A stretch of DNA of 64,000 nucleotides from Gammaproteobacteria bacterium. GTDB taxonomy: Bacteria; Pseudomonadota; Gammaproteobacteria; Pseudomonadales; PIVM01. Location of the stretch: assembly GCA_003353945.1 (NCBI GenBank), contig PIVM01000007.1, positions 5,127-69,126 of the forward strand, read 5' to 3'. Under the pieces are notes generated by a model. It was not told where the DNA came from, ran no database searches, and saw nothing but the letters and a program-made list of their open reading frames with translations. The position numbers and the translations under genes are program-made. Positions 1 to 29,410 of this stretch are shown piece by piece; position 1 is the stretch's first letter, and every line of letters begins with the position of its first letter.

Positions 1-3000
1 TCAATAACGGCAAGCCAATCTGGATCAAAACCAAATTGCGCCAATTTCTTGTTGATCACCTGTTGCAAAGCCTCTCCACAGGCTGCTGGAAAGCTGATCT
101 CTTCAAACACACTGTGCATAAAGCTGCCGGCCTGTGCACCACGGGGAAAGGTAAATATCGAATACTGTGGCATCACACCATTTGCCTCTTCCTGTAAAGG
201 ATCTCTGCTGAGCTTGTTCAACACGCTTTTCGACACGCCTTCATCACGATCGGCAAAGCCCTCATGCACTATCTCCCCCGCTGCAACGCCCTGATGCTGT
301 GTCAAGGCACTGTAACTGGTAATGCTCCAGTCATTTTCAATATACCCACTGAACTGCCTTGCTTGCAGCTTGGCTGCATCGTATTGCTGCTGACCTATAC
401 CGTCAGGCGAATTGATAGCCCTAGCTGCATCATCACTATCACCCAAACAGAAAAACTCTACTCCCAAGGCGGACTGTTGCTCCGAACACTCATTGCTAAT
501 CGAATTTAACTGTTCGCACAAGCGATCTTCATCCACCTCCTGATCTTCACCTTGCAGCAATAAATAACCGAGCGCCGACATATGCAACACACTGGTTTTG
601 CGATTGCCACTGGCTTTGAGATTACACAACCCCACTTTGCAGCAATGTATAGAACGCGTTAGCGCGACGTATAACAATCTCAAATCTTCCGCCAAGCGTT
701 CTTTATCAGCCAAGCGCACATTTTCTGGACTTGCATCAAGATCGACCAACAGCTCCTGTGAATCAGGCAGATGGAGCTGCGCCTGTTCTGCAAGGCGATA
801 GTTCACCGCAAAAGGTAAATAAACAATGGGATATTCCAGCCCCTTGCTTTTGTGAATGGTGACAATCTGCACCAGATTCTGATCGCTTTCCAAACGTATC
901 TGATGCTCTTCCTGGCTGGCTTTCAACACCGAAAGTCGATGTTCGCGCAACCAGTTCAACAACGACTGAGGCCCATGCAGTTCAACACTGGCCATCTGCA
1001 GCAATTCTGCAATATGTAAATAATTGGTCAGCGCCCTTTCGCCACCGAGTTTTTCGAGCAAGCTCTGCGCCAGTTGATGCTCTTGCATGATGCCGTGCAA
1101 CATCGCCATAACCCCTTGCTGCATCCAACACTGATGATAACGAGCGAATGCATTCAATAGGCGATCCCAGCGAATCTCGTCATGCACCAGCTGATCCAGG
1201 GCCTCAGCCTGCAAACCAAACAGACTGGTTGCTATGGCCGCTCGTACATAGCGTTCATTACCTGGCTCAGCGCAAGCCGATAACAACATTTGGATATCCA
1301 TGGCTTCATGGCTTTGTAATACACTGTCATCACTGATAAAAGCACTGGGAATTTGATGCTTGTTCAAGGCCTGCTGCATCTCCCGCGCTTCATGCCTGTC
1401 CCGAACCAGCACGGCAATATCACGCGCCTGCAGGCTATTGTCACCCATCTTTGCAAAACCTTGCGTTGATTTATCCAGCAGTTTTGTGATGTCTTCAGCA
1501 AAATGCGCGGCAAAAAAACGTCGATATTCCGCTTTGGCCACAGGCCGCTTGTCTTCGCTCAACAGACAGTCCAATTGCAAACCATCCCGACATTGACTGT
1601 CGACAGTTAACACGTTCTTGTCGTCGTTTGACGCAGCGTTCACAGGACTAAAGGGAATGTCCTCGTCATAAATAAACGCAGAGCTGGCAAAGTTAAACAG
1701 GGTATTAACACCCTCCACCATCGGCTGGGAAGAACGGTAGTTGGTTGATAAGGTATGAATACAAGAATCCTGCAGGCTTCTTCGCGCTGCAATATAGGTA
1801 AAGATATCCGCCCCTCGAAAACCGTATATTGCCTGTTTCGGGTCACCTATCAGCAGCAGCGCCGTTCCCTGAGCACCGGCATAAATCCGTTGATAAATTT
1901 CATACTGCAGCGCATCGGTATCCTGAAATTCATCAATCATGGCAACCGGATACAGTGTGCGAATACACTGCGCCAGCCTGTCACCCTGCTCAGAGCGTAG
2001 CGCGAATGACAACTGAGATAACAGGTCATCCGGTGCGAGAGTCGCAATCTGCTGTTTATGTGCAGACATCAATTGCCGCACCGTTTTGACCGCCAATTGC
2101 AATACCAGCGATTTTATTGTGGGCGGGTTCGAAAGCAATTCATCAGCAGCATCGAAGACCCTATGCTGCGGTGTTACGCCTTTAGCTGTTTTCTCGCACA
2201 ACGCTCGCTGGGAGAACTTCTCTAACTTGTCGGGCAGCTCATAGCTTTCAAGGGGATTGCTGGCAAAATCGTTGATCTGGGCAAGCCAGCGTGGCAGATT
2301 GGCCTTGTTGTACACTTTTTTACTGACGTCAGACTGCTGAACCAGTGGCAGCAGATCGCCTGCTGCCGCCAGCCATTCGGCCTTGAACTGTAGAATACGC
2401 TGGCAGTTGGCTTGATGAACAACTCCGAGGTCCTGTTCATCCAACTGCGGCAAAAACCGTATCTGTGGTTTTGCCAGCCAGCCGTTGATATCTTTCAGCA
2501 AGTCCGCAGGCGAAGCCCAGTGACGTCGAATCTCAGACGCTAACACGTCATCTGCTGAATAAAAATACTGGCGCCAAAAATCGGCGCAAGCCTGTAACTT
2601 CACCTGCTCCTGATCCAGGATAAAAGCCGTTTCAAACAGCACGCCACTTTCAAATGCATGTTGCGCCAACATACGCTGACAAAAACCGTGGATGGTATAA
2701 ATAGCGGCCTCATCCATTCGCCCTAATGCCGCCGCCAAACGTTGCGCATCAGCAGCACAATCCAGCGATCTTTCAAGCAGCTCATTGATCAAGCTGTCCT
2801 TGCAAGCACTCTTGCAGACACTGCCAGCACGAACCCCGCGAACAAAAACCTGGTAAGCCTGATCTATGCGCTGGCGAACCCTCTCCCGCAATTCCTGTGT
2901 TGCCGCTCGTGTAAACGTGACTACCAGGATTTCGTCAACTGACAAGGGGCTGCGATCTTCTCCATCACCCAACAATAAGCGTAGATATAAACTGCTAATG

Positions 3001-3080
3001 GTATAGGTTTTTCCCGTACCTGCGCTGGCCTCAATCAGGCACATACCCTCAAACGGCAAGGACAATGGATCTAAGGGCAT
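1..3080 (-). CDS. recB: Exodeoxyribonuclease V beta subunit RecB; C-terminus runs off the window edge
   Basis: Absent from the ORF track because it has no stop inside the window. Manual minus-strand translation from the ATG at 3080-3078 gives MPLDPLSLPFEGMCLIEASAGTGKTYTISSLYLRLLLG..VVTFTRAATQELRERV. This is the UvrD-type helicase motif I/Ia N-terminus of RecB. It starts 5 nt after the recC stop. The frame still reads sensibly at the window edge (..ALQQVINKKLAQFGFDPDWLAVI). Confidence 0.85.
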   Translation of the reverse strand, partial: MPLDPLSLPFEGMCLIEASAGTGKTYTISSLYLRLLLGDGEDRSPLSVDEILVVTFTRAATQELRERVRQRIDQAYQVFVRGVRAGSVCKSACKDSLINELLERSLDCAADAQRLAAALGRMDEAAIYTIHGFCQRMLAQHAFESGVLFETAFILDQEQVKLQACADFWRQYFYSADDVLASEIRRHWASPADLLKDINGWLAKPQIRFLPQLDEQDLGVVHQANCQRILQFKAEWLAAAGDLLPLVQQSDVSKKVYNKANLPRWLAQINDFASNPLESYELPDKLEKFSQRALCEKTAKGVTPQHRVFDAADELLSNPPTIKSLVLQLAVKTVRQLMSAHKQQIATLAPDDLLSQLSFALRSEQGDRLAQCIRTLYPVAMIDEFQDTDALQYEIYQRIYAGAQGTALLLIGDPKQAIYGFRGADIFTYIAARRSLQDSCIHTLSTNYRSSQPMVEGVNTLFNFASSAFIYDEDIPFSPVNAASNDDKNVLTVDSQCRDGLQLDCLLSEDKRPVAKAEYRRFFAAHFAEDITKLLDKSTQGFAKMGDNSLQARDIAVLVRDRHEAREMQQALNKHQIPSAFISDDSVLQSHEAMDIQMLLSACAEPGNERYVRAAIATSLFGLQAEALDQLVHDEIRWDRLLNAFARYHQCWMQQGVMAMLHGIMQEHQLAQSLLEKLGGERALTNYLHIAELLQMASVELHGPQSLLNWLREHRLSVLKASQEEHQIRLESDQNLVQIVTIHKSKGLEYPIVYLPFAVNYRLAEQAQLHLPDSQELLVDLDASPENVRLADKERLAEDLRLLYVALTRSIHCCKVGLCNLKASGNRKTSVLHMSALGYLLLQGEDQEVDEDRLCEQLNSISNECSEQQSALGVEFFCLGDSDDAARAINSPDGIGQQQYDAAKLQARQFSGYIENDWSITSYSALTQHQGVAAGEIVHEGFADRDEGVSKSVLNKLSRDPLQEEANGVMPQYSIFTFPRGAQAGSFMHSVFEEISFPAACGEALQQVINKKLAQFGFDPDWLAVI

Positions 3081-3085
3081 CACCA

Positions 3086-6000
3086 CTATTCCTTCACCTC
3101 CGATAGCAGATCCGAAAATTCTCCATAGACAGACTGTGCCAAGGTCACAAACTCCGCAGGCCATTCATCCAGCTCAACAAAACAGCGTTGTACATAGGGA
3201 TCAGCCCCCTCCCCTGGGATGTTGTTATAGGGCAGGCCATGAAATGCGTTATGCATCTCACGCAGGCGTTTGTCATCCCGATAGTCGGGTTCATAGGCGT
3301 GATAACTGCTGTCAGCAAAAAATCGTAACGGCTGCTGCAAGCCCTTCTGAAAATGGAAAAAGAGCACTGACAGCCTCTCCATAGCCTTATCTGAGGGAAG
3401 CGGCTCCAGTCGATACATTGCACCTTGCCCGACAAATACTGCCGGTATTTGATACCCTGCAGCGCATAAAGCCAAATGATAAATCCACAAACCAATTTTA
3501 TCTTTACCCTTAAACTGCGCCGGCCGATAGCGAAGCAAACAGGACGGCATCACTTGATGAACGCGTCCACCCAGCACCGTATCCTCCAATGAAATCTGCA
3601 GATCAACGCTATGCAGCCCAGCAGAACGATAGGGTTGCAGGCGCTGTATCATGGGGGCTAGGTCATCAATGACACGTTGCAATTGAATCCTGCCAAATTC
3701 ACCACAGGGTAATTGTCCGCTTTGCAGATAATTGCTGATAAATTCTTCCGAATTGGGCTCTTCACCTTCACTTTCCTGCAGACAATAATCCAGCCAATCT
3801 TGCTTAAGCTGGTAATTCTGCAGTGCATCCAGAGCGAAGGGCTCTTCATCCGCCAAGCATTGATCTTCAAGCGGAAAATAAACACCCAGACGTCGATTAA
3901 AAAAATATCGGCTGGGATTGCGATAAAAACGCAGCAGCTCGTCAAGCTCAAGGTAGTCTTGAGCGTCCCGTTCAGAATCCTTCTCAGGCGCCAAAAGAGG
4001 CTGAGGACAGAAATCCTCGGTATTTGTTCTTCTCTCACACTGTCCGTTTAACTTGGCAGCCGCATCACACCAATTTTTTGAATAACTGAAAAGTTCGCTA
4101 TTTTGCTGAAAATAGATGGGATTAAATGCCTGCAAGGTATGCTCTACTACCAAGTAGTTTCTGAGTTTTTGCGCAGACTTTTCTGGTTGAATTTTTTCAT
4201 CGCCCGGCAGTACAAAAGACTGCTCACAATAGGCGAGTAATTCGCTAACCAGTACGGAAGGAAGACTGGCTTTATTGTCGTGAATATTACGCCCCTGATA
4301 ACTGATAATCAGTTTTTCCCGCGCTGACAGCACCGCCTCTAAAAACAGATAACGATCATCATCGCGTCGTGAACGATCACCCTGGCGAAATTCCCTGGCC
4401 ATCAAATCAAAGCCCAATGGCTGAATGCTGCGGGGGTAATCACCGTCATTCATACCCAACAGATAAACCACCTTAAAGGGAATGCTACGCATGGGCATCA
4501 AGGTGCAAAAATTGACCTGCCCTGTTAAAAAGCGCTGACCTCCGGATTGTTGCAACAATAAATCCTGCAATGCATCAAGCAATACAGGCTGACCAACGGG
4601 TTCTTCGAAACAAGCCTGCTGTACATCATCATACAGACCCGTCACCGCATCGCGTACAAGCTGCAGAGCACGAACATCCTCCTGCGATGGCAAAAACAAG
4701 TCATCAAGCAGTTGATTCAGCAAATCCCGCCAATCCGACATTGAACGCTGTTGTTGCAGACAGGTACGCCAGAAAGTCAGGCGCTCAACAAAGCCAAGCA
4801 GTTTCCCCAACACCACAGCATCACTGCCTTCGACCGCATCCAGCGGCAGCACACCGGCAAACACTCCCTGCGCCTGTGGCATAGCATAACCCATTAACAA
4901 ACGCTGCAAACCAAACATCCAGGTATTTTGCTCCGTTTCAGGTAACTGCCAAAGCTGCTTGCTACGCCCGTCAAGCCCCCAGCGTACTCCTGCATCCCGC
5001 AACCATGGCTGTATCGCTTCCAGCTCCGACTCAGCAATATCACATTTTTCTGCAATAGCCGGCACCGATAGTAAATCCAACACTTCACTTAAGGTAAAAC
5101 GGCTATCGGGTAGTGCCAATAAAGTTAAAAAGGCCGCAATGACTGGATTTTCAGCTTTTGCAGTCCGATCAGAAATAGACCAAGGAATAAAGTGCTCAGC
5201 TGGAGCATTGGCAAAAACCGCTTGGATATGGGGAGCATAACTATCGACATTCGCCATCATAACGACGACATCCCTGGGCGTCAGCTGCGGATTCTCATCA
5301 AATAAGGCCAGCAACTGATCATGCAGTACTTCAATTTCACGTACGGCGCTATAACAACTATGAACAATAAAAGATCGATCATCCGGTGAAATACAGCTTT
5401 TATATTCGCTGGAGTGATCGTGGTGTTTGTCATGATGTATGCCAGCACTTCCCCGATTATTCAAGGTTAAGATGTCATACTGCAAGGTACTCAGCAGGTC
5501 ATTCGGTTCAATCATGGTGAAGGCATCAATATCCTGCGCCTCACAAGCGTGCAGCAAATCCAGATAATCACGCCCCTGCTGAGCCATGGATGCCAGTAAA
5601 GGATTGCTATTGGCAATACCCTCTTCTTCCGACTGCGAAGGCTCAATACCGTGACTGCGCCAAACTGATTGCATTTTGGCGCAATAACGAGAATCCATAA
5701 CATCGCCCCAATAATGCATACAGGGATTAAACACCATCATATGGACATCGATGTGACGGCCCAGTGCATCTAGCAGCTGCAGATAATTCGGTGCCAGCGT
5801 GGTTATGCCAAACACAAACAAACGCGATGGAAGACCGGATAAATCCGGCGCCCGATTCAGACGGTGATGACACTCGGCAAACAACTCTGCCCGATGTTGG
5901 GTAGACTGCTGTAGTGCCTCTGACTGCTCAACAAGCGCACACCATAACTCAGCCTGCCATTGTTGCTCACTCTGTTGTTCATCCTGATCATCAAGACCGC

Positions 6001-6469
6001 TTATTGCTACTGTTTTATTTTGTTGCCAGGCATTTATCCAGTCCGGCCGGTACACCAAATATTGATCATAAACATCAGCAATCTTGCGAGCCAGTTGAAA
6101 CTGTTTTCGCTGGTCTTTATCATCACTCAGGTAATGGCGCAAAGGCTCAAAAGCAGATTTATGCAGCTGCTCGGGCAGCACAGCCATCAGCTTCCATACC
6201 ATGCTTGGCTTGGCGAAAGGCGTGCATTCCGGCAAATCATGTATCAACTGTCGGAATAGATGCCAAATAAAACTCGAAGGCAGCGGAAACTCGACATTGG
6301 CCGTCACCGAAAACATGCTGGCAATTTGTAACTTCAGCCAGTGGGCCATCCCTGGATTCTGCACCAGAATCACCTCGGATCGAAACGGGCTCGACGGTGC
6401 ATCAACCAACTCTGTCGCCAAATGGGGCAGCAGGTGTTCAAGCCGATTGGCATGATAGATTTTCAACAT
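3086..6469 (-). CDS. recC: Exodeoxyribonuclease V gamma subunit RecC
   Basis: ORF of 1127 aa. The N-terminus MLKIYHANRLEHLL and the size are typical of RecC. It lies directly upstream of recB on the same strand. Confidence 0.9.
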   Translation of the reverse strand: MLKIYHANRLEHLLPHLATELVDAPSSPFRSEVILVQNPGMAHWLKLQIASMFSVTANVEFPLPSSFIWHLFRQLIHDLPECTPFAKPSMVWKLMAVLPEQLHKSAFEPLRHYLSDDKDQRKQFQLARKIADVYDQYLVYRPDWINAWQQNKTVAISGLDDQDEQQSEQQWQAELWCALVEQSEALQQSTQHRAELFAECHHRLNRAPDLSGLPSRLFVFGITTLAPNYLQLLDALGRHIDVHMMVFNPCMHYWGDVMDSRYCAKMQSVWRSHGIEPSQSEEEGIANSNPLLASMAQQGRDYLDLLHACEAQDIDAFTMIEPNDLLSTLQYDILTLNNRGSAGIHHDKHHDHSSEYKSCISPDDRSFIVHSCYSAVREIEVLHDQLLALFDENPQLTPRDVVVMMANVDSYAPHIQAVFANAPAEHFIPWSISDRTAKAENPVIAAFLTLLALPDSRFTLSEVLDLLSVPAIAEKCDIAESELEAIQPWLRDAGVRWGLDGRSKQLWQLPETEQNTWMFGLQRLLMGYAMPQAQGVFAGVLPLDAVEGSDAVVLGKLLGFVERLTFWRTCLQQQRSMSDWRDLLNQLLDDLFLPSQEDVRALQLVRDAVTGLYDDVQQACFEEPVGQPVLLDALQDLLLQQSGGQRFLTGQVNFCTLMPMRSIPFKVVYLLGMNDGDYPRSIQPLGFDLMAREFRQGDRSRRDDDRYLFLEAVLSAREKLIISYQGRNIHDNKASLPSVLVSELLAYCEQSFVLPGDEKIQPEKSAQKLRNYLVVEHTLQAFNPIYFQQNSELFSYSKNWCDAAAKLNGQCERRTNTEDFCPQPLLAPEKDSERDAQDYLELDELLRFYRNPSRYFFNRRLGVYFPLEDQCLADEEPFALDALQNYQLKQDWLDYCLQESEGEEPNSEEFISNYLQSGQLPCGEFGRIQLQRVIDDLAPMIQRLQPYRSAGLHSVDLQISLEDTVLGGRVHQVMPSCLLRYRPAQFKGKDKIGLWIYHLALCAAGYQIPAVFVGQGAMYRLEPLPSDKAMERLSVLFFHFQKGLQQPLRFFADSSYHAYEPDYRDDKRLREMHNAFHGLPYNNIPGEGADPYVQRCFVELDEWPAEFVTLAQSVYGEFSDLLSEVKE

Positions 6470-6538
6470 AGATTTTTCTGTGAGTGCAAATGACAGTCAG
6501 CGGCTGCCAGAATCGTTATCGTTATCGTATTCAAGAAA

Positions 6539-7522
6539 TTAATGGTACTGTTTACTCAACTCTTTCACCATAGTATTTGCAGTTTTGTTGCCTACTTTGA
6601 GCCTGCCTTTTGCTCCCGTATTATTCGTACCGCAAGAATTCGCCACACCATGGGGTACATGACCGGTTGCCACATAAGCTCTGGCAGATTCACAATGACA
6701 ATGCTGATCATCAAAGAAAATATCCGCGGCAAAAACACGCAGAAATTCACCCTTATTCATACCCCCAAGAAACACGGCCTCATCAATACGAATATCCCAG
6801 CTACGCAGGGTGCGAATAACACGCTCATGCGCTGGAGCGGAGCGAGCGGTTACCAAGGCTGTGCGAATGGGGCAATTTTCGGGCGTGTAATGTTTTTGCA
6901 GACGATGCAAGGCCAGTAAAAAATCCTTGAATGGGCCGTCTTTCATGGGTCGGCAAGCCTGGCTCTTTTCATGCGCCACAAATGCATCCAAACCTTGTTG
7001 CTTATAGATCTTTTCCGATTCATCGGAGAAAACCACCGCATCACCATCAAAGGCAATACGCACCTGACCAGCACTGGCACCATTTTTCGCAGCAGAGGGC
7101 ATCACCATGGCAGCCGCCATCTGATTGGCCAATGCCCGCTCAACATCTTCGGCATTAGTTGATAGCAACAAATGACAGCCATAGGGTTTGGCATAATGGT
7201 AGGGAGACTGGCCACTGCAAAATGCTGCGCGGCTAATTTGCAGGCCATAGTGTTCTATAGACTGGAATACCCGTAATCCTGTGTCTGCACTGTTGCGCGA
7301 TAACAGGATAACCTCAACACTGTCGGCATGGCACTTGTTTAACTCCAGCAGCTTTTTTACCAATCCAAATGCCTCTCCCGGCTGTAACACCTCACTTTCC
7401 CGGCTGATCTGGTACTGAGCATAGGCCTTAACTCCATGTTTCAGATACACCTCATTAGAATCATGCATATCAAACAATGCGCTGGATGTAATACCAATAA
7501 CCAATTTTCCACTTTTGCTCAC
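6539..7522 (-). CDS. Cytosolic 5'-nucleotidase family protein (PF06189-like)
   Basis: 327 aa. KLVIGITSSALFDMHDSNEVYLKHGVKAYAQYQ and VILLSRNSADTGLRVFQSIEHYGLQISRAAFCSG match my recollection of the bacterial 5'-nucleotidase (PF06189) family. Same strand as recC, 69 bp upstream of it. Confidence 0.6.
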   Translation of the reverse strand: MSKSGKLVIGITSSALFDMHDSNEVYLKHGVKAYAQYQISRESEVLQPGEAFGLVKKLLELNKCHADSVEVILLSRNSADTGLRVFQSIEHYGLQISRAAFCSGQSPYHYAKPYGCHLLLSTNAEDVERALANQMAAAMVMPSAAKNGASAGQVRIAFDGDAVVFSDESEKIYKQQGLDAFVAHEKSQACRPMKDGPFKDFLLALHRLQKHYTPENCPIRTALVTARSAPAHERVIRTLRSWDIRIDEAVFLGGMNKGEFLRVFAADIFFDDQHCHCESARAYVATGHVPHGVANSCGTNNTGAKGRLKVGNKTANTMVKELSKQYH

Positions 7523-7565
7523 TGCATATCCCTCAATGTTTTTCTGTGTTATCTCTATGATACAA

Positions 7566-7594
7566 TCTAAAGCGTCAATTATTGTCGCTTTAGA
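7566..7594. promoter_or_regulatory. Perfect 9-bp inverted repeat (TCTAAAGCG-N11-CGCTTTAGA), candidate operator in a divergent promoter region
   Basis: Read directly: tctaaagcg at 7566-7574 and cgctttaga at 7586-7594. It lies between the nucleotidase start (7522) and the WYL regulator start (7653). CAATTATT recurs at 7577-7584 and 7606-7613. Confidence 0.4.
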
Positions 7595-7652
7595 GACAAC
7601 TCAGACAATTATTTTGCTAAAACCAGTAAATTGGGCAAATGTAAGGTAAATC

Positions 7653-8774
7653 ATGAAATATCGCGATGAAGCTCTACGCACATTCTGCCGACGCCTGGAA
7701 ATACTGAACTTCATTAAGCAACACCGGCAGGCCTGTTCGGTCATGGCCATCACTGAGCACCTGATTGATTCTGGCCTGCTCGATCTCCCAACTCGGGACA
7801 GTAACAGTCCAGACAAATCTCAATTGCGCAAAATCCAACGTGACCTGCAATTTTTGGCAGGCGACGAGAGCTCGCAAAGCGAAGAGGGAGATAACTTCAA
7901 TGAATTCGGACTGACAAAATGCGCCGGAGGCAGGCACAGCTATCGATGGCAAATAGCGCAAGATCCTGATATCGATTTCAACTGGTCAACCATGCCAGAT
8001 CATATGGCGGTCACCCTGGCGCTGGCAGAAAAACACCTGGCATCGGCGATGCCGTCGCGCTATCACCAGCTACTCAGACAACACTATAAAACAGCTCGTC
8101 ACAAACTTGTCCAAGCTTCCAAAAAATATCAACCCAAACAGTTACAACATCTGGTGGACAGCGTAGCGGTAGATCAACGCGGACTAAGACTAGAAGCAGC
8201 ACAGATTGACGAACAAATTCTCGATACCATTTATGAGGCACTGATTCTGCGGCGTCGGCTACAAATACGCTATAAAAACAAACTGATAATCATTCACCCT
8301 CATGGAGTTGTTATTGCCAGACCCAAAATGTACCTTCTGGCTTTAAAAGACGTGGGACCTGGTAATGAGAAATTACGTAGCTATCTGATACACCGCATCC
8401 AGTCCATCAACCTGTTAAAACAAAGCGCCCAGCTCATAGCGAATTTCAAGCTGCAGGATTATTTGGCTGAAGGTCTAATGGATGTCATGATTGACAAGGA
8501 CATTGGTGTATATCAACTGCAGATCAAACTTCAGCCTGACGCTCAAAGCAATCTCTTGCTGGACCTGTATGAAACACCTATCGCCCCCGATCAACAAATC
8601 ATGAAAAGTACCGATGGTAGTTATCTGCTAACTGCGAACGTACATCGGAGCTATCAATTATTGAACTGGATCATCAGCTTGGGACAGGTAGCTACGATTC
8701 TAAGGCCAGCCTGTATACGCAAGGACGTTATTCGGCATGTACAGCAAATTGCTGCCAATTACCAAATAATGTGA
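7653..8774 (+). CDS. Transcriptional regulator with N-terminal winged HTH and a WYL-like domain
   Basis: 373 aa. The N-terminus LRTFCRRLEILNFIKQHRQACSVMAITEHL looks like a DeoR/HTH_11-type wHTH. The central LILRRRLQIRYKNKLIIIHPHGVVIARPKMYLLALKD resembles the WYL beta-strand core. Transcribed divergently from the nucleotidase-recC-recB genes. Confidence 0.55.
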   Translation: MKYRDEALRTFCRRLEILNFIKQHRQACSVMAITEHLIDSGLLDLPTRDSNSPDKSQLRKIQRDLQFLAGDESSQSEEGDNFNEFGLTKCAGGRHSYRWQIAQDPDIDFNWSTMPDHMAVTLALAEKHLASAMPSRYHQLLRQHYKTARHKLVQASKKYQPKQLQHLVDSVAVDQRGLRLEAAQIDEQILDTIYEALILRRRLQIRYKNKLIIIHPHGVVIARPKMYLLALKDVGPGNEKLRSYLIHRIQSINLLKQSAQLIANFKLQDYLAEGLMDVMIDKDIGVYQLQIKLQPDAQSNLLLDLYETPIAPDQQIMKSTDGSYLLTANVHRSYQLLNWIISLGQVATILRPACIRKDVIRHVQQIAANYQIM

Positions 8775-9142: not shown

Positions 9143-9418
9143 ATGAAAAGAACTGTACTTGCATTAACGACAACGGCACTTATGACAGTCTCTTTTTGTG
9201 CCATAGCGGCTAAGCCAGTTAAGATCACACCCGGGGCCAAAGGCGTTGCCTCCGATGGGGCGGCATTTAGAGGCTATGTTGTACAATGCAGTAATGGCAA
9301 AAAGCAACCTTTGACCGCTTGGAACAATGGCAGGAAATGGTGTATCGGTCAGGAATCGCAAGAAAACTGCTCAAAGAAGCAAATTAAGGCCGCAAAAAAA
9401 GCCTGTAAGTTAAGTTAA
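9143..9418 (+). CDS. Small secreted cysteine-containing protein, unknown function
   Basis: 91 aa. Signal peptide MKRTVLALTTTALMTVSFCAIAA, four Cys in the mature part, and a lysine-rich C-terminus. Followed by a strong terminator. Confidence 0.5.
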   Translation: MKRTVLALTTTALMTVSFCAIAAKPVKITPGAKGVASDGAAFRGYVVQCSNGKKQPLTAWNNGRKWCIGQESQENCSKKQIKAAKKACKLS

Positions 9419-9491
9419 GCTTTGTCCTGTATTTGTTGGTAGTTATTGGAAATCATGTAACTGCATCTGAAGAGACTCAGAGTAAATTCCT

Positions 9492-9527
9492 GAAACAAAG
9501 GTGTCTAAAGGCACCTTTGTTTCTTTT
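9492..9527 (+). terminator. Rho-independent terminator
   Basis: Perfect 12-bp stem: gaaacaaaggtg (9492-9503) pairs with cacctttgtttc (9512-9523). The loop is 8 nt and a TTTT tract follows. Confidence 0.65.
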
Positions 9528-16790: not shown

Positions 16791-18473
16791 ATGACGACTG
16801 ATCATCTGAAATACGAAAGCAGCGGCGCTTTATCCTCTGCTCCGCAACAAGCACAGTCCATTCTCAAAATCTATGCTTACTACCGCATGGCATTGTCTCT
16901 GATAATGATAATGCTGTTTTTCGGAGATTACTCCTGGAAAGTAGCAGGGACATTTAACCCTCATCTCTATTTTGTTACCTGCCTGTGCTACGGCGGTCTG
17001 AATCTAGCTTCCTTATGTTACTTCATCAGAAAACAATTCAACTCTAACAAGCAGCAACAACTATTTATTTTCGTGGTGGATATCATCGCTATCGTCATGA
17101 TTATCCATACGAGTGGCGGTATTGATACTGGCCTGGGAGCATTGTTGGCCATTACCGTTGCAGCCGCAGGCATCTTTTTCGAAAGTATTCTGGCCTTTCT
17201 TGTAGCTGCACTCGCCACAGTCGGGCTCATTCTGCAAAACAGCTACATCAGCTATCTTGAACCCAATCACATCAGGGAATTTTTCGGCGCCGGCCTTCTG
17301 GGTATTTTGTTTTTTGCCACTTCCGCCGCAATGCAGTTACTGACAAAAAGAATACGCAGCAGTCAACTATTGGCTGAAAGCAAAACAGCCGATGCAGCAG
17401 ACTTACAAAGACTCAATGAACTCATTGTACAAAGAATGCAAACCGGCATCATTGTAGTCGGTGAAAACAGCCAGGTACAAATGATGAACAGGGCGGCTGG
17501 ACGAATGCTGGCCATACCTGTAAACACTGCAGAACCAATCCCTATGCGGGACATCAATGTCAGCCTTGCCGAGCAAATATCACATTGGACCGCCGACCCC
17601 AATATGCGCCCAAAGCCTTTCCAAGCGACAGAAAATGCACCCGTAATACAGGCCAACTTTGCCCCTCTGCAACGATCAGCCACTCGCCGCAATCAAACCC
17701 TGATTTTTCTTGAAGACACCAGCAAATTGACTCAACAGGCTCAACAAATCAAGCTCGCTTCCCTTGGCAGATTAACCGCCAGTATCGCCCATGAAATTCG
17801 CAATCCTCTTGGCGCCATCAGTCATGCAGCTCAGTTAATGCAGGAATCTGATCAACTGTGTACTGCAGACCTCAAGCTCGCCAGCATTGTTCAAAAGCAC
17901 TCTCGACGAATGAACCAGATTATCGAAAATGTGTTACAACTTTCCCGTCGACGACCCGCACATCCCGAGAAACTCTCCGCCCCTGACTGGCTGCAGCAAT
18001 TTGTTGAGGAATACTGCTCCCACCACCCTGGTGATACAGAAATTCGCCTCGATCTACATACAGATGTCAGTACTTTGCCCTTTGATCCAAGCCAACTTCA
18101 GCAAGTACTTACCAACCTATGCCAAAATGGTTTACGCTATAGCCAACAGGCCACTGGAAACGCCAGCTTATTGTTAAAAACCCACCCTGACGAGAAAACC
18201 TCACTCCCTTGCCTGGATATTATCGATGACGGCAAAGGAATCAGCGATGAAGCCAGAGAAAAGATTTTTGAACCATTTTATACTACTGAAAGTACTGGCA
18301 CAGGTTTGGGGCTGTATATCTGCCGTGAGTTATGCGAAGCTAATCAAAGTCGCCTTGATTATTTTACACAAAACGGAAAAAGTTGTTTTCGCCTAAGCTT
18401 CTCTCACCCGGACAAAAATATAGCCTCTATAATCAATGATGAAAACGAATCAAATAATTCAACAATACTATGA
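16791..18473 (+). CDS. pilS: Type IV pilus sensor histidine kinase PilS
   Basis: 560 aa with a polytopic N-terminus. H-box SIAHEIRNPLGAISH and HATPase G-boxes (DDGKGI, GTGLGL). Its stop overlaps the pilR start in an ATGA junction. Confidence 0.85.
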   Translation: MTTDHLKYESSGALSSAPQQAQSILKIYAYYRMALSLIMIMLFFGDYSWKVAGTFNPHLYFVTCLCYGGLNLASLCYFIRKQFNSNKQQQLFIFVVDIIAIVMIIHTSGGIDTGLGALLAITVAAAGIFFESILAFLVAALATVGLILQNSYISYLEPNHIREFFGAGLLGILFFATSAAMQLLTKRIRSSQLLAESKTADAADLQRLNELIVQRMQTGIIVVGENSQVQMMNRAAGRMLAIPVNTAEPIPMRDINVSLAEQISHWTADPNMRPKPFQATENAPVIQANFAPLQRSATRRNQTLIFLEDTSKLTQQAQQIKLASLGRLTASIAHEIRNPLGAISHAAQLMQESDQLCTADLKLASIVQKHSRRMNQIIENVLQLSRRRPAHPEKLSAPDWLQQFVEEYCSHHPGDTEIRLDLHTDVSTLPFDPSQLQQVLTNLCQNGLRYSQQATGNASLLLKTHPDEKTSLPCLDIIDDGKGISDEAREKIFEPFYTTESTGTGLGLYICRELCEANQSRLDYFTQNGKSCFRLSFSHPDKNIASIINDENESNNSTIL

Positions 18474-19852
18474 CTGAAAACCCTATTGCTCTGATCGTGG
18501 ACGATGAACCTGACATCAGGGAACTACTCGAAATTACGCTGGGTCGCATGTCAATCGACACCCGTTGCGCACCCGATATTCAAACCGCCAAATCGCTGCT
18601 TTCAGCTCAAAAGCCCTATTTTAATCTTTGCCTGACGGACATGAATCTACCCGATGGCAACGGCATAGACCTGGTCAGCCATATTCAGGAAAATTATCCG
18701 CAAACTCCGGTCGCCATGATCACAGCCTATGGCAATATGGAGACAGCGGTAGAAGCTCTTAAGGCTGGCGCCTATGATTTTGTCTCCAAACCCATCGAAC
18801 TTGAACGGCTTCGCAGCCTCGTTGACAACGCACTCAAACTGGAAAAAACCCCGATCAATACAGCTGATTGTCAAAATGAAGTTCGCCTGATCGGTAAGAC
18901 CAGAGCCGTCGAAGCACTGCGTGCACAAATTATCAAACTCGCTCGCAGTCAGGCACCGGTTTTTATCAGTGGCGAATCCGGCAGCGGAAAAGAACTGGTA
19001 GCACGCCTAATTCACGCAAACAGCCCTCGTAACAACGGCCCGTTTATCCCAGTAAACTGCGGCGCCATCCCTTCTGAATTAATGGAAAGTGAATTTTTTG
19101 GTCATCAGAAAGGCAGTTTTACCGGTGCCAGTGGTGATAAAAAAGGCCTGTTTCACGCGGCCGATGGTGGCACCTTATTTCTTGATGAAGTCGCAGATCT
19201 CCCCCTGGCCATGCAAGTCAAATTGCTGCGAGTGATACAGGAAAAGGCTGTGCGTCCAATCGGAGGCCATGAAGAGATCCCCATTGACGCCCGTATTCTA
19301 AGTGCTACGCACAAGACCCTTTCAGCTGAGGTTGAACGTGAACGATTCAGAAGCGACCTGTTTTATCGCATCAATGTTATCGAATTAAAAGTACCCAGTT
19401 TACGTGAGCGCATCGACGACATACCTTTACTTGTAGATAAAATGCTGGACAAGCTGGCCGCAGATTGTGAGACGGAAAAGCCGGAAATTGATGATAATAC
19501 GCTCTCTGAACTGAGTCGCTATCATTTTCCCGGTAATGTTCGAGAACTGGAAAACATCCTCGAACGCGCTTACACGCTGTGTGAAGACAACACTATCAGA
19601 GCACAAGATTTGCAGCTATCCCATCAATCACCAACGCCAGTTTCAACGCAAATCAACGATAACGCTCTTTATCCGACTATTCAAACAGAAGATGCCTTTG
19701 GATCACTGGAAGAGTTTTTGGAGAATATTGAAAAGGAAGCTATCACCAACGCACTGGAACAATCACGCTGGAATAAAACTGCAGCGGCAAAACTATTGGG
19801 CATATCCTTTCGTGCTTTACGCTATCGATTAAAAAAACTTGATCTCGAATAA
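18470..19852 (+). CDS. pilR: Sigma-54-dependent response regulator PilR
   Basis: REC domain (IVDDEPDIRELL), AAA+ Walker A GESGSGKE, a GSFTGA loop (a GAFTGA variant), and a C-terminal Fis-type HTH (AAKLLGISFRALRYRLKK). Confidence 0.9.
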   Translation: MTENPIALIVDDEPDIRELLEITLGRMSIDTRCAPDIQTAKSLLSAQKPYFNLCLTDMNLPDGNGIDLVSHIQENYPQTPVAMITAYGNMETAVEALKAGAYDFVSKPIELERLRSLVDNALKLEKTPINTADCQNEVRLIGKTRAVEALRAQIIKLARSQAPVFISGESGSGKELVARLIHANSPRNNGPFIPVNCGAIPSELMESEFFGHQKGSFTGASGDKKGLFHAADGGTLFLDEVADLPLAMQVKLLRVIQEKAVRPIGGHEEIPIDARILSATHKTLSAEVERERFRSDLFYRINVIELKVPSLRERIDDIPLLVDKMLDKLAADCETEKPEIDDNTLSELSRYHFPGNVRELENILERAYTLCEDNTIRAQDLQLSHQSPTPVSTQINDNALYPTIQTEDAFGSLEEFLENIEKEAITNALEQSRWNKTAAAKLLGISFRALRYRLKKLDLE

Positions 19853-19909: not shown

Positions 19910-20428
19910 ATGCAACGCGGATTCACTCTACTGGAAACACTCATTGTTATTTCTCTACTGGCCATTCTAAGCACACTAGCCATACCCAGCTTCCAACATA
20001 GTCAGAAAAAAAACCAAGCCGACAGAGCTATCTCTCAGTTACAAAATGCTCTTTCGCTGGCACGTCAGACAGCCATCAATCAGAGAAGCCGGACTATTGT
20101 TTGCCCAAGCATTGATGGCCGGCAATGCGAACAACAGTCCGACTGGCTACCAGGCTTTATCGCTTTTATCGATCTAAACCATTCGAACCAGTACGAACCC
20201 GACGAGGAGCGAGCAGGCTTGCTACAACGTCACTATAGTATGCGTGGCGCCCAGTTTTATTCCAGCCGTAACTTAGTCAGTTTTAACAGCTACGGCCAAA
20301 CCAACGGCACACCACAGACATTTAACTATTGTGACCAAAGCAGTAATCCGCTTTACGCTCGTCGCCTACGAATAAACCTACAAGGACGATTAGCGCTGGA
20401 TCACGATGCGACTTGCCAAGTCGACTAA
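19910..20428 (+). CDS. fimT: Type IV pilus minor pilin FimT (GspH family)
   Basis: Prepilin leader MQRG/FTLLETLIVISLLAIL. 172 aa. Its position after pilSR matches the Pseudomonas arrangement. Confidence 0.7.
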   Translation: MQRGFTLLETLIVISLLAILSTLAIPSFQHSQKKNQADRAISQLQNALSLARQTAINQRSRTIVCPSIDGRQCEQQSDWLPGFIAFIDLNHSNQYEPDEERAGLLQRHYSMRGAQFYSSRNLVSFNSYGQTNGTPQTFNYCDQSSNPLYARRLRINLQGRLALDHDATCQVD

Positions 20429-20901
20429 CCTGCCTCACAATCCTCGTCACTCAATTCCTGATAACTTGATTGCAAATTCCAACATTGTCCTTCAATGTTA
20501 TCAGAACCTCGTTCACCGGCATGATTCAGTACCAGCGTGCCACAGGGATCATTTATCTGCCGACCGTCTTCAACGGGAATTGCCTTCAACTCAAAACATT
20601 TTTCACCCGCACGCGATATGCTGAGGTCATAGACTTTTTCAGTGCCAGTAAATGGCACCTGCTGAGCAAAAAAACGTGGCGGACCCGTATCTCCACTTTC
20701 AGCTGCATCACGATAGCTGTAGCGTTTGGCATAATGTCGCTCCATCGCCTGGCGCAACAACTGCAGACTCTGCTCTGCCTCTTTTCGTCGAGTCTTTCGC
20801 TGTATATGCTCATAACTTGGAACAGCTATTGTGACCAATAATGAGACAATGGCAATTACAACCATCAGTTCCACTAATGTCATGCCCAATAATAATTTCA
20901 A
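20425..20901 (-). CDS. pilE: Type IV pilin-like protein PilE (set 1)
   Basis: The longest ORF extends to 20958, but a TTG at 20901 gives a classic short leader, MKLLLG/MTLVELMVVIAIVSLL. That start also removes the overlap with pilY1. Confidence 0.7.
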   Translation of the reverse strand: MKLLLGMTLVELMVVIAIVSLLVTIAVPSYEHIQRKTRRKEAEQSLQLLRQAMERHYAKRYSYRDAAESGDTGPPRFFAQQVPFTGTEKVYDLSISRAGEKCFELKAIPVEDGRQINDPCGTLVLNHAGERGSDNIEGQCWNLQSSYQELSDEDCEAG

Positions 20902-20921
20902 ACACACAACACTATTGACAT

Positions 20922-23900
20922 TCACTCTTGCAACACTTTCCACCGCCATCGTCCCCACCGTATTCCTTCACTAACCTTAATCAACCCATCAGCGTCAATA
21001 CACAAGCCACCGTCACAAGCAACACTGATAACATCATTGCTTGTAATAGATCGCTTCAAACCAGCCGTTGACAGCCCCCCAATCGAATCATGCCGATCAA
21101 ATTCACCGTCACCATTATGATCGAAAGTTTGAGATCGTGTCCTACCCCCCGTTGTTCTATCCAAAGCCATTAACCAACTATCACCACCCGATTTACAAGC
21201 ATCCTCAGACGGGACGATGCTATTAATAAACAACAGCGGGCCAAGCAGTATGGGCTGTGCAATAATTTTTTCACCCTGTTCGTGGTTTAGATCAAGAACC
21301 CAGCCCTGATGTTCATCCCAGTCAATGGAACGCTCACTGACCGATCGCCTATTTCCCTGCTGCGCGCTGATGTATTGTGCTAATAAGTCGGCTCTGTCTA
21401 CGCTCGAAGGCACATGCATCAAAGGCGCTTGTAGCTGCTCACAAGGAACGGTTTGACGATTTTCTCTGCATTGGTTTTTATCCCATATAGCGTATACGCT
21501 TTGCACACTCGCATCACTCTGATCGCCATATTCAAGATATTGGCCAGTACCAAAATACACCATCAATCCACCCAAGCCGGCCGGATGCCCACCAACAACT
21601 GGGGCTGCCGTAATAGGCTGAACAACACCGTCAACCCGTGCTGTAAATAGGGGGCCTGCCCGATCAGACAGCGATCTCCCATTAGCGACACGCCAATCCG
21701 ACGGATTATCAGAGCTAATATCAAACTTCCAAAGATTGCCACGCAGATCGCCCGCATACACATAATCGGCCTTGTAATCGGCGTTGTTATACACCGCCGC
21801 CGGCGTTGCCAGCCCATTGGGGTTGAGCCGATCACCCATTCCCGTTGTGATCTTTCTTAGCAATTTTCCGGTTTCAATATCAACGACAAATAACACGGCC
21901 TGGCCACTGCCCACCTGCCCATCGTTCTGTGTCGCATTGTATCCATTGCCAAAAATGACCACCCAACGACCATTACTACCACTACTTTGATAGTTCGATT
22001 TCACAATAACAGGCTTTGAAAAACTGAAACCCAAATCAGGATCATCTCTATCACTGAACTCCCAACGCACTACCTTACTGAATCGGTCGGAACGAAAATT
22101 TCCTGGTTCAGTAATATCCAACCCGAAATAAGCCTGACCACCAGTGCGCAAACCACCGACAAGCATCGTATGCCACTGGCCTCCATAAAAAACATCCGCA
22201 GCATTGAGAACCCCGTCCACCATGGCTATCGGAGCAGTTTGGCGGGCAGTTAATTGTGATAGCCTGGAGATAAGAGCATTGGGTACGTAGCTGAACAGCT
22301 CACGCCCCCCCGTAAGCGGATCAGCATCATAAGCGTGCAACATACCATCGTTGCTACCGATATATACCAGTGGAAGTCGCTGATAGATTCCCGCATCACA
22401 TGACTCGATCAAACCATCCTGATTACTGTCGTGTGGAGAACTGCAAATAAACTCGCTATGAGACTGGCCGCCACTCTCCATATCATCCGGATAACGCAAC
22501 TGCCATGCACCCTGCGGGGAAAAACCATTGCCAACCAATAGCGGCGTCGAATTGATAATCGGCCCCAGCGATGCCGACTGGCGATCTCGAAAAGGACCAC
22601 CGAATTGTTGTTCCTGGGCTCTTTCTCCACGAATATAACGGACTCGTTTTTCACCAAGCCCATCCCGATCAAGTATTCTCTGCTGCTCCAAATTTAGACC
22701 ATCAGTCATCCATTGAAACTGAATACCTCGCCGGCCCAACTCTTTCGCCGGATCATAACTGGCCACTAGTCTCTCAGAGGATCGTAGTGATTGATTGACC
22801 TCCATCGCATCCCAATAGGCTGCGCTTTGTTGATCGACTTGTGTCGCTGCTACCGACGATAAAGCCAGCAAATGGCCGCTATTTTCTTGAGTATTAAATT
22901 GCGCTTGGTATAACACGTCTCCTGTTGAAAAAGAGCTTGTATTCAGCACTGATGATGAGTACTCGCGTTGAAGATCCATGACTGGCAAGCCAGTTTCCCT
23001 CAAGCGGCCAAACTGCTCTCGATGATAAAATCCACCTCGACTATTAATTGCAGCATGTAACAAATCATCAACACGTCCCAGGGAAGTATCAGGACCATTC
23101 TCTACCGCCAGCTCCGTCCATCCATTCTGACGGTCTCCCCGCTGATTGCTAAAGGCCTCACCCCTCGCCATAGACTGAAACACGGACTCATCAATCGGCA
23201 CCAGTCCACTAGCACCCGGCGAGATAATATAGTTTGCCATGTGTTGCCAACTTGCCGGATCGTTCTGATAGTGCCAATAAGCACTATCAGAATCACTCAA
23301 TTCAGAAGCCGAGTGTCGCATAGAAAATCGAACATCGTTTGGCAAGTCTTCGCGTAAATCTTGCGCCCAATAGGTAAAAGCCAAATCAGCAAGTGTCGAT
23401 TGTTGTGCATCTGCAAAGAGCAACTGCTCCTGAGGCTGATAGACCGTACCATCAGGCAATAGAGTGGTTTTATGATCGGGATAGTCGGCGCTTTGCAAAG
23501 TCTGATAATTGGACTGTCCATCACTGATCAATACATGATAGTTCGCTCGACAACTCACTTCTTGTCCGCTGTCCTTTCTGTCCCATGGCCGTTCACGATA
23601 AACACTTTGCGAGCCACTACCTCTGAAAAATTCTCCGGCCGATTCAAACAGTCCACTGACATGCCTATCATTAGCAACCTCAAGACTATAAAACCACTGA
23701 AACAGATTAGCTCTTTCTGACTCACTCAATCGTTGCAACGCATTTGGTGCTTTTGTTTCGGAACCGGAACGAGATTGCATAGCATCCATACTTTGGTAAG
23801 CGACCCGAACAACACTCGACAATTTTTCCGGTGAAAACAGATAACTACTTATCGCCTTTGAGGCAAGAATTTTTAGTGAATAGTACTGATACCAATTGGC

Positions 23901-24572
23901 AAAATTGACTCGTTCATCCCGACTGAGTTGCCCGCCCAGTTCCGGTCTACTGCGCATGTCACCTGAAATTTCAGTGACTGGCACAAATCGGTAACAAGCA
24001 TTATTAAGCGATTTTTCCTCTTCCGCACCAACACAAGCCGCAGGATTTAACGCCACATCAAAACGATAATAATATGCCGCACCATCTCTGTACGCATCAC
24101 TTTCATCCGGTGCATAGCGCGGATGTAAACCTAATCCATCCTCACTCCAGCGTGGATTATATTCACCAGACAAATCAATCCCCGCCGTAGAAGCAAGCCG
24201 TTTTTGCGTAGCGTTCAAATAGTTATTGTTGTAACTGTTAAGAAAATCCGCAGAAGGTAAATCATTGCCAAACGCATCTTTTGGAGGGAGGTAATCTATA
24301 GAGGGATCATAATACATGACATTATAATGGCTGGACTTCACCGCCCTAAGCGCATACTGCCCCTTTGTACCCAGGCTGTCGGGCGAAAATCCACGAAACA
24401 TACTGGGCGAATTGTCAAAACTAATCAAAATGTTCGGTGCAACCTTCGGCACAATATGCGGTGGCACGGAAAAAAGGGACATTTCCTCTGCCTGCAAATT
24501 GATTATCCCAAAACACACCACAACGGCTATAATCCCTATCATCCTTGATAGTCGATTCATCATAAATCCCAA
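20922..24572 (-). CDS. pilY1: PilY1 pilus-tip adhesin / biogenesis factor (set 1)
   Basis: 1216 aa with a signal peptide. N-terminal DxSxS (FDNSPSM, nt 24402-24416). C-terminal PilY1-type propeller region with an EF-hand-like DHNGDGEFD (nt 21096-21122). Confidence 0.85.
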   Translation of the reverse strand: MGFMMNRLSRMIGIIAVVVCFGIINLQAEEMSLFSVPPHIVPKVAPNILISFDNSPSMFRGFSPDSLGTKGQYALRAVKSSHYNVMYYDPSIDYLPPKDAFGNDLPSADFLNSYNNNYLNATQKRLASTAGIDLSGEYNPRWSEDGLGLHPRYAPDESDAYRDGAAYYYRFDVALNPAACVGAEEEKSLNNACYRFVPVTEISGDMRSRPELGGQLSRDERVNFANWYQYYSLKILASKAISSYLFSPEKLSSVVRVAYQSMDAMQSRSGSETKAPNALQRLSESERANLFQWFYSLEVANDRHVSGLFESAGEFFRGSGSQSVYRERPWDRKDSGQEVSCRANYHVLISDGQSNYQTLQSADYPDHKTTLLPDGTVYQPQEQLLFADAQQSTLADLAFTYWAQDLREDLPNDVRFSMRHSASELSDSDSAYWHYQNDPASWQHMANYIISPGASGLVPIDESVFQSMARGEAFSNQRGDRQNGWTELAVENGPDTSLGRVDDLLHAAINSRGGFYHREQFGRLRETGLPVMDLQREYSSSVLNTSSFSTGDVLYQAQFNTQENSGHLLALSSVAATQVDQQSAAYWDAMEVNQSLRSSERLVASYDPAKELGRRGIQFQWMTDGLNLEQQRILDRDGLGEKRVRYIRGERAQEQQFGGPFRDRQSASLGPIINSTPLLVGNGFSPQGAWQLRYPDDMESGGQSHSEFICSSPHDSNQDGLIESCDAGIYQRLPLVYIGSNDGMLHAYDADPLTGGRELFSYVPNALISRLSQLTARQTAPIAMVDGVLNAADVFYGGQWHTMLVGGLRTGGQAYFGLDITEPGNFRSDRFSKVVRWEFSDRDDPDLGFSFSKPVIVKSNYQSSGSNGRWVVIFGNGYNATQNDGQVGSGQAVLFVVDIETGKLLRKITTGMGDRLNPNGLATPAAVYNNADYKADYVYAGDLRGNLWKFDISSDNPSDWRVANGRSLSDRAGPLFTARVDGVVQPITAAPVVGGHPAGLGGLMVYFGTGQYLEYGDQSDASVQSVYAIWDKNQCRENRQTVPCEQLQAPLMHVPSSVDRADLLAQYISAQQGNRRSVSERSIDWDEHQGWVLDLNHEQGEKIIAQPILLGPLLFINSIVPSEDACKSGGDSWLMALDRTTGGRTRSQTFDHNGDGEFDRHDSIGGLSTAGLKRSITSNDVISVACDGGLCIDADGLIKVSEGIRWGRWRWKVLQE

Positions 24573-24579
24573 TCACTTT

Positions 24580-26060: not shown

Positions 26061-26074
26061 TCTTCCCCCAACAT

Positions 26075-26590: not shown

Positions 26591-27015
26591 ACCAATCCCT
26601 GGTTATCTTGGGTCTACTATCAACAATAGTGAAAAACTATTTTGGCATTCCATTCGCCATGCGCTTACACCGCCGCTTATCATACTTATCTAACGATGAA
26701 ACTCAATACATTTTTTGTGGATGACTAATCCGATTTTTTATCGGGATGATCCAGAAATGTCTAGATGACTGATGATTTCTCGAATCCTATCCGTGCCTCC
26801 AATATCAAACAGAGCGTGACCCAGTTCTCACTGTAAACTTACCCGACAACTCTAAATACACCTACATCCATGAAGAAAACAGCTCAGACCTCCTTTCAGC
26901 CACTAAAAAGCTCCGATTATCCGATACACCAACTATCTCCCGTTTTGGCTGCTATTGTATATATTGAGGGTGTCCCTCTTTAGAACTTTATCTGGATTTC
27001 AAAGTGAGGCAAGAG

Positions 27016-28238: not shown

Positions 28239-28249
28239 TTTAGTGAGTA

Positions 28250-29371: not shown

Positions 29372-29410
29372 CTGATCAATGCAATTCAGTAAAAAACGAG
29401 TGATATTATT

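Follow-up and report, generated by a model that had tools for sequence, protein, structure and literature searches.

A DriD/DdaA-type WYL regulator predicted to control a divergent 5'-nucleotidase-recCBD gene string in a marine gammaproteobacterial lineage

The 64,000-nt stretch of contig PIVM01000007.1 analysed here (hereafter, the window) carries the gene of a WYL-domain transcription factor of 373 amino acids (aa) on the plus strand (7653..8774), which diverges from a minus-strand gene string composed of a HAD-type cytosolic 5'-nucleotidase, recC and recB. On its modelled structure, the regulator is a DriD/DdaA-type protein with a helix-turn-helix of the winged type (wHTH), a three-helix bundle, one WYL domain plus one WCX domain, and not a generic WYL protein. 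The reading that we favour, with a probability of roughly 0.55, is that it activates the nucleotidase promoter and thereby recCBD. Open reading frames (ORFs) were checked by translation, Pfam gathering scores and NCBIfam cut-offs. An earlier sequence-only reading had placed the regulator at 7653-8774 on the plus strand and the PF06189 nucleotidase, recC and recB on the minus strand, and both translation and Pfam agree with these positions.

The regulator, its box and the predicted adjoining promoter

The WYL (PF13280, 1.4e-7) and WCX (PF25583, 2.7e-8) domains of the regulator both score above their Pfam gathering scores, and the PADLOC WYL model matches the protein at 5.7e-21. At the N-terminus no Pfam HTH model matches, and only the AlphaFold model and the full-length Foldseek matches to DriD point to a wHTH. 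The model, with a mean predicted local distance difference test (pLDDT) score of 76.8, presents a three-helix wHTH with two insertions (helices at residues 2-23, 30-39 and 55-69, plus a beta wing), a bundle of three helices (116-170), a WYL beta domain and, lastly, WCX, these two forming the beta/alpha regions. In the Foldseek search against the PDB, ranks 1-11 were all occupied by chains of Caulobacter DriD, matched over their full length with E-values down to 5.7e-14, followed by PafBC (1e-10), CapW (3.7e-7) and BrxR (2.7e-5); the CapW and BrxR matches together ranged from 3.7e-7 to 4.9e-5. A single-sequence phmmer search of the regulator against PDB sequences returned no matches, and only the profile search finds DriD: the family profile gave DriD as the best match (5e-10 over WYL and WCX), followed by PafBC, CapW and BrxR. 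The sequence-only reading had assigned the protein to the nucleic-acid-sensing class of WYL regulators and had named a WYL fold, to be sought by profile or structure analysis, as its check. This fold is present in Pfam (PF13280), AlphaFold and Foldseek alike, and the class assignment is borne out by the WYL and WCX domains and by the DriD fold matches. By analogy, the regulator probably acts as a dimer.

Several of the residues through which DriD contacts single-stranded DNA (ssDNA) have aligned counterparts in the regulator family. Y168 corresponds to Y207, which is invariant, Y192 to Y227, K202 to a conserved lysine and R204 to R242, and W206 aligns with Y or F (PMC9186387).

The regulator and nucleotidase genes are separated by a divergent spacer of 130 bp (7523-7652), which contains a DriD-type box, CGTCAATTATTGTCG, at 7573-7587. 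This box is the core of a nearly perfect palindrome of 14+14 nt (7566..7594, 93% complementary), which we propose as the operator. The orthologous spacers are otherwise unalignable, and their sole conserved element is CGTCA-N5-TGTCG with complementary AAA/TTT flanks. The window and each of 7 orthologous loci have the exact core once, in constant orientation, and it is absent from the 17 other loci compared. Within the 64-kb window it was found only at 7573, and cores with one mismatch numbered 6 against 2.7 expected, which is chance level. The DriD consensus is ATACGAC-N7-GTCGTAT, in general form CGXC(X)7GXCG around an AT-rich centre, and a DriD-type box lies beside 68 of 69 alphaproteobacterial driD genes (PMC10853764); the DdaA box at the Acinetobacter recA promoter is CGTCATGTTATGTCG (PMC13010146). 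The window box fits both published boxes, and the wHTH of the regulator probably binds the CGTC-N7-GTCG box at 7573-7587.

Two further box-like sequences were observed in the window. A perfectly symmetric DriD-type box, CGACATTGACTGTCG (CGAC-N7-GTCG), lies within the recB coding sequence at 1588-1602; on neither side of it does a TAnnnT stand at 10 nt, and about one such match is expected per 64 kb by chance. A relaxed match at 20409 was ruled out, having no -10 element at the right spacing. No further regulon member is visible in the 64-kb window.

On the nucleotidase strand, a hexamer of the form TAT(C/G)(A/C)T starts exactly 10 nt past the box in all six distinct orthologous spacers, and a variant spacer (L066) keeps the same 10-nt distance. 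When the spacers are anchored on the box, no position other than this hexamer is conserved. In the window, the predicted -10 hexamer of the nucleotidase promoter is TATCAT (7557..7562, minus strand), a TAnnnT at 10 nt from the box, and the box itself would cover about -37 to -23. At 17 nt upstream of this -10 stands the hexamer ACAATA, with 2 of 6 positions in agreement with TTGACA, so that the promoter has no -35 element. The predicted transcript start lies ~28 nt before the GTG start codon of the nucleotidase and upstream of its ribosome-binding site, GAGGGA. Since the -10 is good and a -35 is missing, RNA polymerase would be efficient here only with the regulator bound. On the opposite strand, a TAnnnT was found upstream of the box in just four of the six spacers.

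This layout resembles the Caulobacter didA promoter, in which GTCG is followed after 9-10 nt by the -10 and the box covers an absent -35; the target that the box next to driD activates is the divergent operon and not driD (PMC13004042). A local arrangement is also described for SiwR of M. smegmatis, a WYL activator of its adjacent operon that binds the -26 region (PMC10693628). In position, spacing and missing -35, the predicted promoter matches the DriD activator architecture, and from this analogy we infer that the regulator would activate rather than repress the nucleotidase promoter.

A sister clade provides an independent test of the box, as judged from its sequences. Its regulators are 35-40% identical to the window regulator, and its 41 loci contain neither the nucleotidase nor recC. 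In these loci a perfect CGACA-N5-TGTCG lies ~230-290 nt downstream of the regulator gene, followed by 10 nt, the hexamer TA(A/T/G)TAT and then an ORF of 47 aa that is strongly conserved. Of 28 distinct regions upstream of this ORF, 27 carry the box, and in all 27 a TAnnnT follows it at exactly 10 nt. In one locus (L004) there are no genes on the other side for the box to serve, and in this clade the box appears usable just as an upstream activator site. The 47-aa ORF, MFRVNAFTQKGTKFRFRIKSDSIHEVRDALSEIFDGQTMRLVLVEPV, is convergent with the sister-clade regulator gene (for example, L004 9143-9382 and L036 7157-7383; 34 loci among L004-L060). It belongs to no Pfam family, and the window holds no copy of it. 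By analogy with the logic of didA and aciT, it may be a damage-induced small effector, though it is not membrane-looking.

The nucleotidase-recCBD gene string and its distribution

The nucleotidase (327 aa, 6539..7522, minus strand) is a cN-IA-like member of PF06189, matching the Pfam profile at 4.5e-129 over positions 5-301 of 302. The motifs FDGDAV, VTARS, GG..KG and FFDD do not vary when the protein is aligned with 11 homologues, and it is, on sequence, a cN-IA-like family enzyme with intact catalytic motifs and a predicted activity to match. In vertebrates, cN-IA takes AMP and deoxypyrimidine monophosphates as substrates. More than 8000 nucleotidase homologues were scored, with ~65% identity across Cellvibrionales, Oceanospirillales and even Betaproteobacteria. 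No relative was found among PDB sequences, none of the bacterial PF06189 members appears to be characterised, and the family is hardly mentioned in the literature. A C-terminal tail of ~30 aa ending in KQYH (6539-6640, residues ~296-327) was observed in the window nucleotidase and its two closest relatives (P0020, P0021). Other homologues do not have this tail, which is seen just where the gene precedes recC, yet P0022, of the same lineage, is without it.

Downstream of the nucleotidase, on the same strand, a 69-bp spacer (6470..6538), as the sequence-only reading had stated, leads to recC (3086..6469, 1127 aa). The product, the gamma subunit of exodeoxyribonuclease V, is identified by Exonuc_V_gamma (4.9e-104), RecC_C (1.3e-55) and NCBIfam TIGR01450 (1094.7 bits, cut-off 582.9). 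The next open frame (1..3080, minus strand) exits at the window start; since this edge-cut frame carries UvrD-helicase (1.1e-48) and UvrD_C (1.9e-22) domains, we take it as the 5' part of recB. Translation of this frame would start at the ATG at 3080, 5 nt past the stop codon of recC, or at an alternative GTG that overlaps this stop codon. The window therefore holds a complete recC and a partial recB, with recD past its edge.

A terminator scan of the 69-bp gap found no intrinsic terminators, and neither this gap nor its counterparts in L002, L006 and L022 (74, 45 and 147 bp, respectively) folded, as RNA, into a GC stem with a U tract behind it. In L066, the nucleotidase gene is followed by a 75-bp gap and by recC-recB-recD with 4-nt overlaps, after which a convergent gene ends the string. 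Because the gaps have no terminator and the recC-recB-recD genes of L066 overlap, co-transcription of the nucleotidase with recC is likely from the sequence. A terminator belonging to the nucleotidase alone, which the sequence-only reading had named as its refuter, was found neither in the window nor in three orthologues. Its proposal of a single transcription unit fits the terminator-free gap and the tight packing of recC-recB(-recD), while read-through itself is a prediction.

The regulator is a rare protein: only 14 homologues with at least 38% identity came out of a word-indexed search among 5.8 billion proteins, and a metagenome scan with a 14-sequence alignment added 41 loci with 28-40% identity to the regulator. 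Regulator orthologues with 49-59% identity were identified on eight contigs (L001, L002, L003, L006, L022, L023, L024 and L066), and in all eight the regulator gene stands back to back with the nucleotidase gene. The order nucleotidase-recC is kept wherever the contig is long enough (L002, L006, L022 and L066). Among 15 nucleotidase loci from other lineages, none had an adjacent recC and none a WYL gene, and a tauE-cysB-cysH neighbourhood was often found. The regulator-nucleotidase pair, whose conservation the sequence-only reading had suggested surveying, is thus kept in the window and its eight orthologous contigs and is not general.

The closest named RecC relatives, 42-44% identical, come from Neptuniibacter, an Oceanospirillaceae metagenome-assembled genome (MAG), Marinobacterium and Photobacterium, and the RecC homologues place the lineage roughly near Oceanospirillales/Vibrionales. 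Upstream of recCBD in Neptuniibacter caesariensis (L067) and the Oceanospirillaceae MAG (L068), there is no nucleotidase, WYL gene or box. On these comparisons, the wiring appears to be a clade-specific invention in a small, poorly sampled and uncultured marine gammaproteobacterial lineage.

Two side observations concern these comparison loci. In L067 (5430-5837) and L068 (5352-5758), recCBD is preceded by a shared pair of small unannotated ORFs, of 77 aa on the plus strand and 56-58 aa on the minus strand. A TauE-family gene adjoins the nucleotidase in L019 (8001-9779) and L021 (8001-9702) and the sister-clade regulator in L004 (7268-9098); the idea that this shared neighbour is a trace of an ancestral locus was unsupported and is left as coincidence.

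Directly 3' of the regulator, the stretch 9143-9523 holds the gene of a signal-peptide protein of 91 aa and a terminator. A protein with 67-72% identity occupies the same place in orthologous loci, and this secreted protein has neither a Pfam family nor a box upstream. The terminator, a strong one with a 14-bp stem (9492-9523), follows this gene. Further downstream there are a GGDEF-EAL protein, two clusters of type IV pilus minor pilins with PilY1, and PilS and PilR. The two minor-pilin gene sets stand back to back (19910-34002), each with its own PilY1 gene (20922-24572, minus strand, and 30019-34002, plus strand; PF05567, 1e-49 and 5e-60), and are adjoined by pilS and pilR (16791-19852). 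No Rfam family reached its gathering score anywhere in the 64-kb window. The locus sits in ordinary core chromosome, and an origin in a mobile element or defence island was ruled out by the unremarkable GC content and the syntenic core-gene flanks.

Proposed circuit and competing readings

In the circuit that we propose, the regulator would bind the box at 7573-7587 and the nucleotidase promoter would be switched on via TATCAT. The presumed ssDNA ligand would come from DNA damage, DNA uptake or phage attack. A transcript beginning ~28 nt before the nucleotidase GTG would read through the 69-bp gap into the coupled recC-recB(-recD). Such a response would raise two activities jointly, RecBCD on double-strand ends and the cN-IA-like nucleotidase on the released ribo- or deoxyribonucleoside monophosphates ((d)NMPs). 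The adjacency of the genes makes it plausible, by itself, that the nucleotidase disposes of the dNMPs from RecBCD-driven degradation. A stronger version, in which a damage- or ssDNA-inducible operon purposely couples the nucleotidase to RecBCD under a DriD-like sensor parallel to LexA/SOS, seems rather unlikely to us. In that version, dNMPs from RecBCD and exonucleases would be dephosphorylated at once, and the balance of the dNTP pool would be kept or a phage denied recycled nucleotides.

Several observations weigh against activation of the nucleotidase and recCBD by an ssDNA-sensing regulator. On the recC side, RecBCD needs basal expression, the sequences of the nucleotidase-recC gaps are not conserved, and a promoter proper to recC may lie in the gap or within the nucleotidase gene. 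A consensus promoter scan of the divergent spacer gave no sites, as is expected of an activator-dependent promoter, and so adds no positive evidence. In two orthologues, L022 and L024, the regulator side of the box has a better -10 (TATAAT and TATAGT, respectively) at a distance of 10 nt, and control may therefore be bidirectional or aimed at the regulator gene in some members. In the protein, the loop that bears R176 and R178 in DriD is six residues shorter in the regulator clade, and the DriD linker residue Y240 aligns with a methionine; for these two reasons an ssDNA ligand is plausible rather than established. The N-terminal domain, in turn, has no sequence-level similarity to DriD in PDB searches, where one sister-clade sequence (P0009) and a 10-sequence profile that included the window's own gave spurious matches only. 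Its predicted recognition helix carries a family-invariant R59-x-x-Q62-R63 with the same spacing as R37/E40/R41 of DriD, which read the half-site (PMC10853764). Because of the missing N-terminal similarity, this correspondence is a positional one.

The alternative that survives best, unlikely as we judge it, limits the regulator to local activation of the nucleotidase. In that case recCBD would be transcribed from its own promoter(s), and the adjacency of recC would be an accident of this clade. RecBCD is normally constitutive, as in E. coli, which speaks for this explanation, as do the many unrelated contexts of the nucleotidase (tauE-cysB-cysH, for example), the nearest named relatives with recCBD and no nucleotidase, and the unconserved gaps of 45-147 bp with weak -10-like strings right before the recC ATG. 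However, none of the four orthologous gaps contains a terminator, the order nucleotidase-recC is kept in L002, L006, L022 and L066, and read-through from an induced promoter would raise recCBD even where a basal promoter exists. Joint activation of the nucleotidase and recCBD remains our preferred reading.

An anti-phage role was part of the sequence-only reading, and a BrxR/CapW-like repressor of the regulator's own gene and/or the nucleotidase, released by ssDNA, would suit it, with the nucleotidase as a nucleotide-depleting effector. The nucleotidase matches PADLOC PDC-S08 at 2.3e-132, a match at family level, and the regulator matches CRISPR-associated WYL models in PADLOC. On the plus strand, TATGAT or TACAAT lies just upstream of the window box, which could therefore overlap the regulator's own transcription start, and CapW is a precedent, being a wHTH-WYL-WCX repressor released by ssDNA (PMC11662680). 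We nevertheless hold a repressor of this kind to be improbable. The Foldseek matches to CapW and BrxR (3.7e-7 to 4.9e-5) are far weaker than those to DriD (5.7e-14), the plus-strand -10 is absent in two of six orthologues while the minus-strand -10 is present in all, and the sister-clade box fits only an upstream activator site. Moreover, PDC-S08 is an untested defence candidate, unvalidated and barely mentioned in the literature, and no other defence genes were seen within ~10 kb of the locus. The neighbours are recCBD, a housekeeping-like nucleotidase, the 91-aa secreted protein, the GGDEF-EAL protein and pilus genes, rather than the defence systems beside which BrxR and CapW are found. With the nucleotidase ~65% identical across orders in its more than 8000 homologues, and in core, non-island settings, the anti-phage idea is left with the PDC-S08 family match.

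Equally improbable is that the box serves only the regulator gene, by autoregulation, or is a leftover, with true targets such as recA, ssb or uvrA elsewhere: DriD and DdaA do control dispersed regulons (PMC10853764, PMC13010146), and the spacers of L022 and L024 have the box close to the regulator gene (~23 nt from its start, against 100-200 nt to that of the nucleotidase), with TATAAT on that same side, but the fixed-spacing minus-strand -10 of all orthologues would then go unexplained, and the Caulobacter box beside driD regulates the divergent operon, not driD (PMC13004042).

Control of the locus by LexA was also considered and rejected, since both spacers are without CTGT-N8-ACAG, even with one mismatch allowed. 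A perfect LexA box, CTGTAATAATATACAG, was identified at 61966-61981, 45 nt upstream of yebG (62026-62307, PF07130, 4e-24), so that the organism probably has an SOS system. By analogy with DriD in Caulobacter, the regulator would represent a pathway parallel to SOS.

Significance and relation to known WYL systems

RecBCD of E. coli is regarded as constitutive and not part of the SOS regulon. If the proposed activation is true, a gammaproteobacterium would induce RecBCD upon damage by way of a WYL activator that senses ssDNA and is independent of SOS, and the bacterial PF06189 family would acquire its first physiological context, namely dNMP disposal tied to DNA-end processing. The combination of box, 10 nt and TAnnnT is a portable promoter rule, by which regulons can be predicted from genomes, and the comparisons have also brought to light, in the sister clade, a conserved candidate effector of 47 aa. 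These gains are limited by the rarity of the lineage, which is uncultured, and by a mechanism that copies that of DriD, DdaA, PafBC and SiwR.

The sequence-only reading had described the arrangement as one not previously reported to its knowledge. The gene pairing is indeed new, and precedents exist for its logic: PafBC controls RecBCD and AdnAB in mycobacteria (PMC8223512), and the DdaA regulon comprises the dNTP-pool enzyme gene dgt together with recA, ssb and uvrA (PMC13010146). ssDNA-sensing WYL activators that induce repair genes are already established in DriD, DdaA, PafBC and SiwR. What is new here is a separate gammaproteobacterial lineage of ssDNA-sensor-type WYL regulators, a directly adjacent target that joins a cN-IA-like 5'-nucleotidase gene to recCBD, and a clean promoter rule common to the sister clade, where it would drive the 47-aa ORF.

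Among the known systems, DriD of Caulobacter crescentus, an ssDNA-activated and SOS-independent damage activator, gives the best full-length structural match and the best WYL-WCX sequence match in the PDB. Both systems have a CGxC-N7-GxCG box with an AT-rich centre, placed beside the regulator's own gene, over the -35 and 9-10 nt from the -10 (PMC10853764, PMC13004042), and in Caulobacter the box next to the regulator gene serves a divergent operon (PMC13004042). Furthermore, the DriD regulon includes the recombination genes recA and recJ. However, identity in the structural alignments is 14-20%, DriD has 327 aa compared with 373 aa and two wHTH insertions here, and the present regulator is gammaproteobacterial. 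The adjacent target also differs, being CCNA_03891 with a TonB-dependent transporter in Caulobacter and nucleotidase-recCBD here, and no didA-like gene was seen at the window locus.

DdaA is a gammaproteobacterial wHTH-WYL-WCX activator, and its recA box has the same asymmetric CGTCA-N5-TGTCG form as the window box (PMC13010146). Its regulon, with dgt, extends to the dNTP pool; the likeness drawn here is one of box and description. Acinetobacter is without LexA, whereas the window has a LexA box before yebG, and the main text of the report on DdaA makes no mention of recBCD or a 5'-nucleotidase.

PafBC and SiwR are ssDNA-triggered WYL activators, and SiwR acts locally on its adjacent operon (PMC10693628). 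PafBC comprises two HTH-WYL-WCX units, paired as a heterodimer or fused, recognises a non-palindromic element and binds only with RNA polymerase (PMC10853764), in contrast to the single 373-aa unit and palindromic box found here; no second WYL gene is adjacent, and the Foldseek scores are lower than for DriD. BrxR and CapW have in common with the present regulator the wHTH-WYL-WCX order, a palindromic operator near their own gene and, as far as the ligand proposed here holds, an ssDNA signal (PMC11662680, PMC9122601). They differ from it as repressors located beside BREX, CBASS and other defence islands, whereas the window locus combines a core-chromosome setting, an activator-like promoter geometry and a weaker fold match to these repressors.

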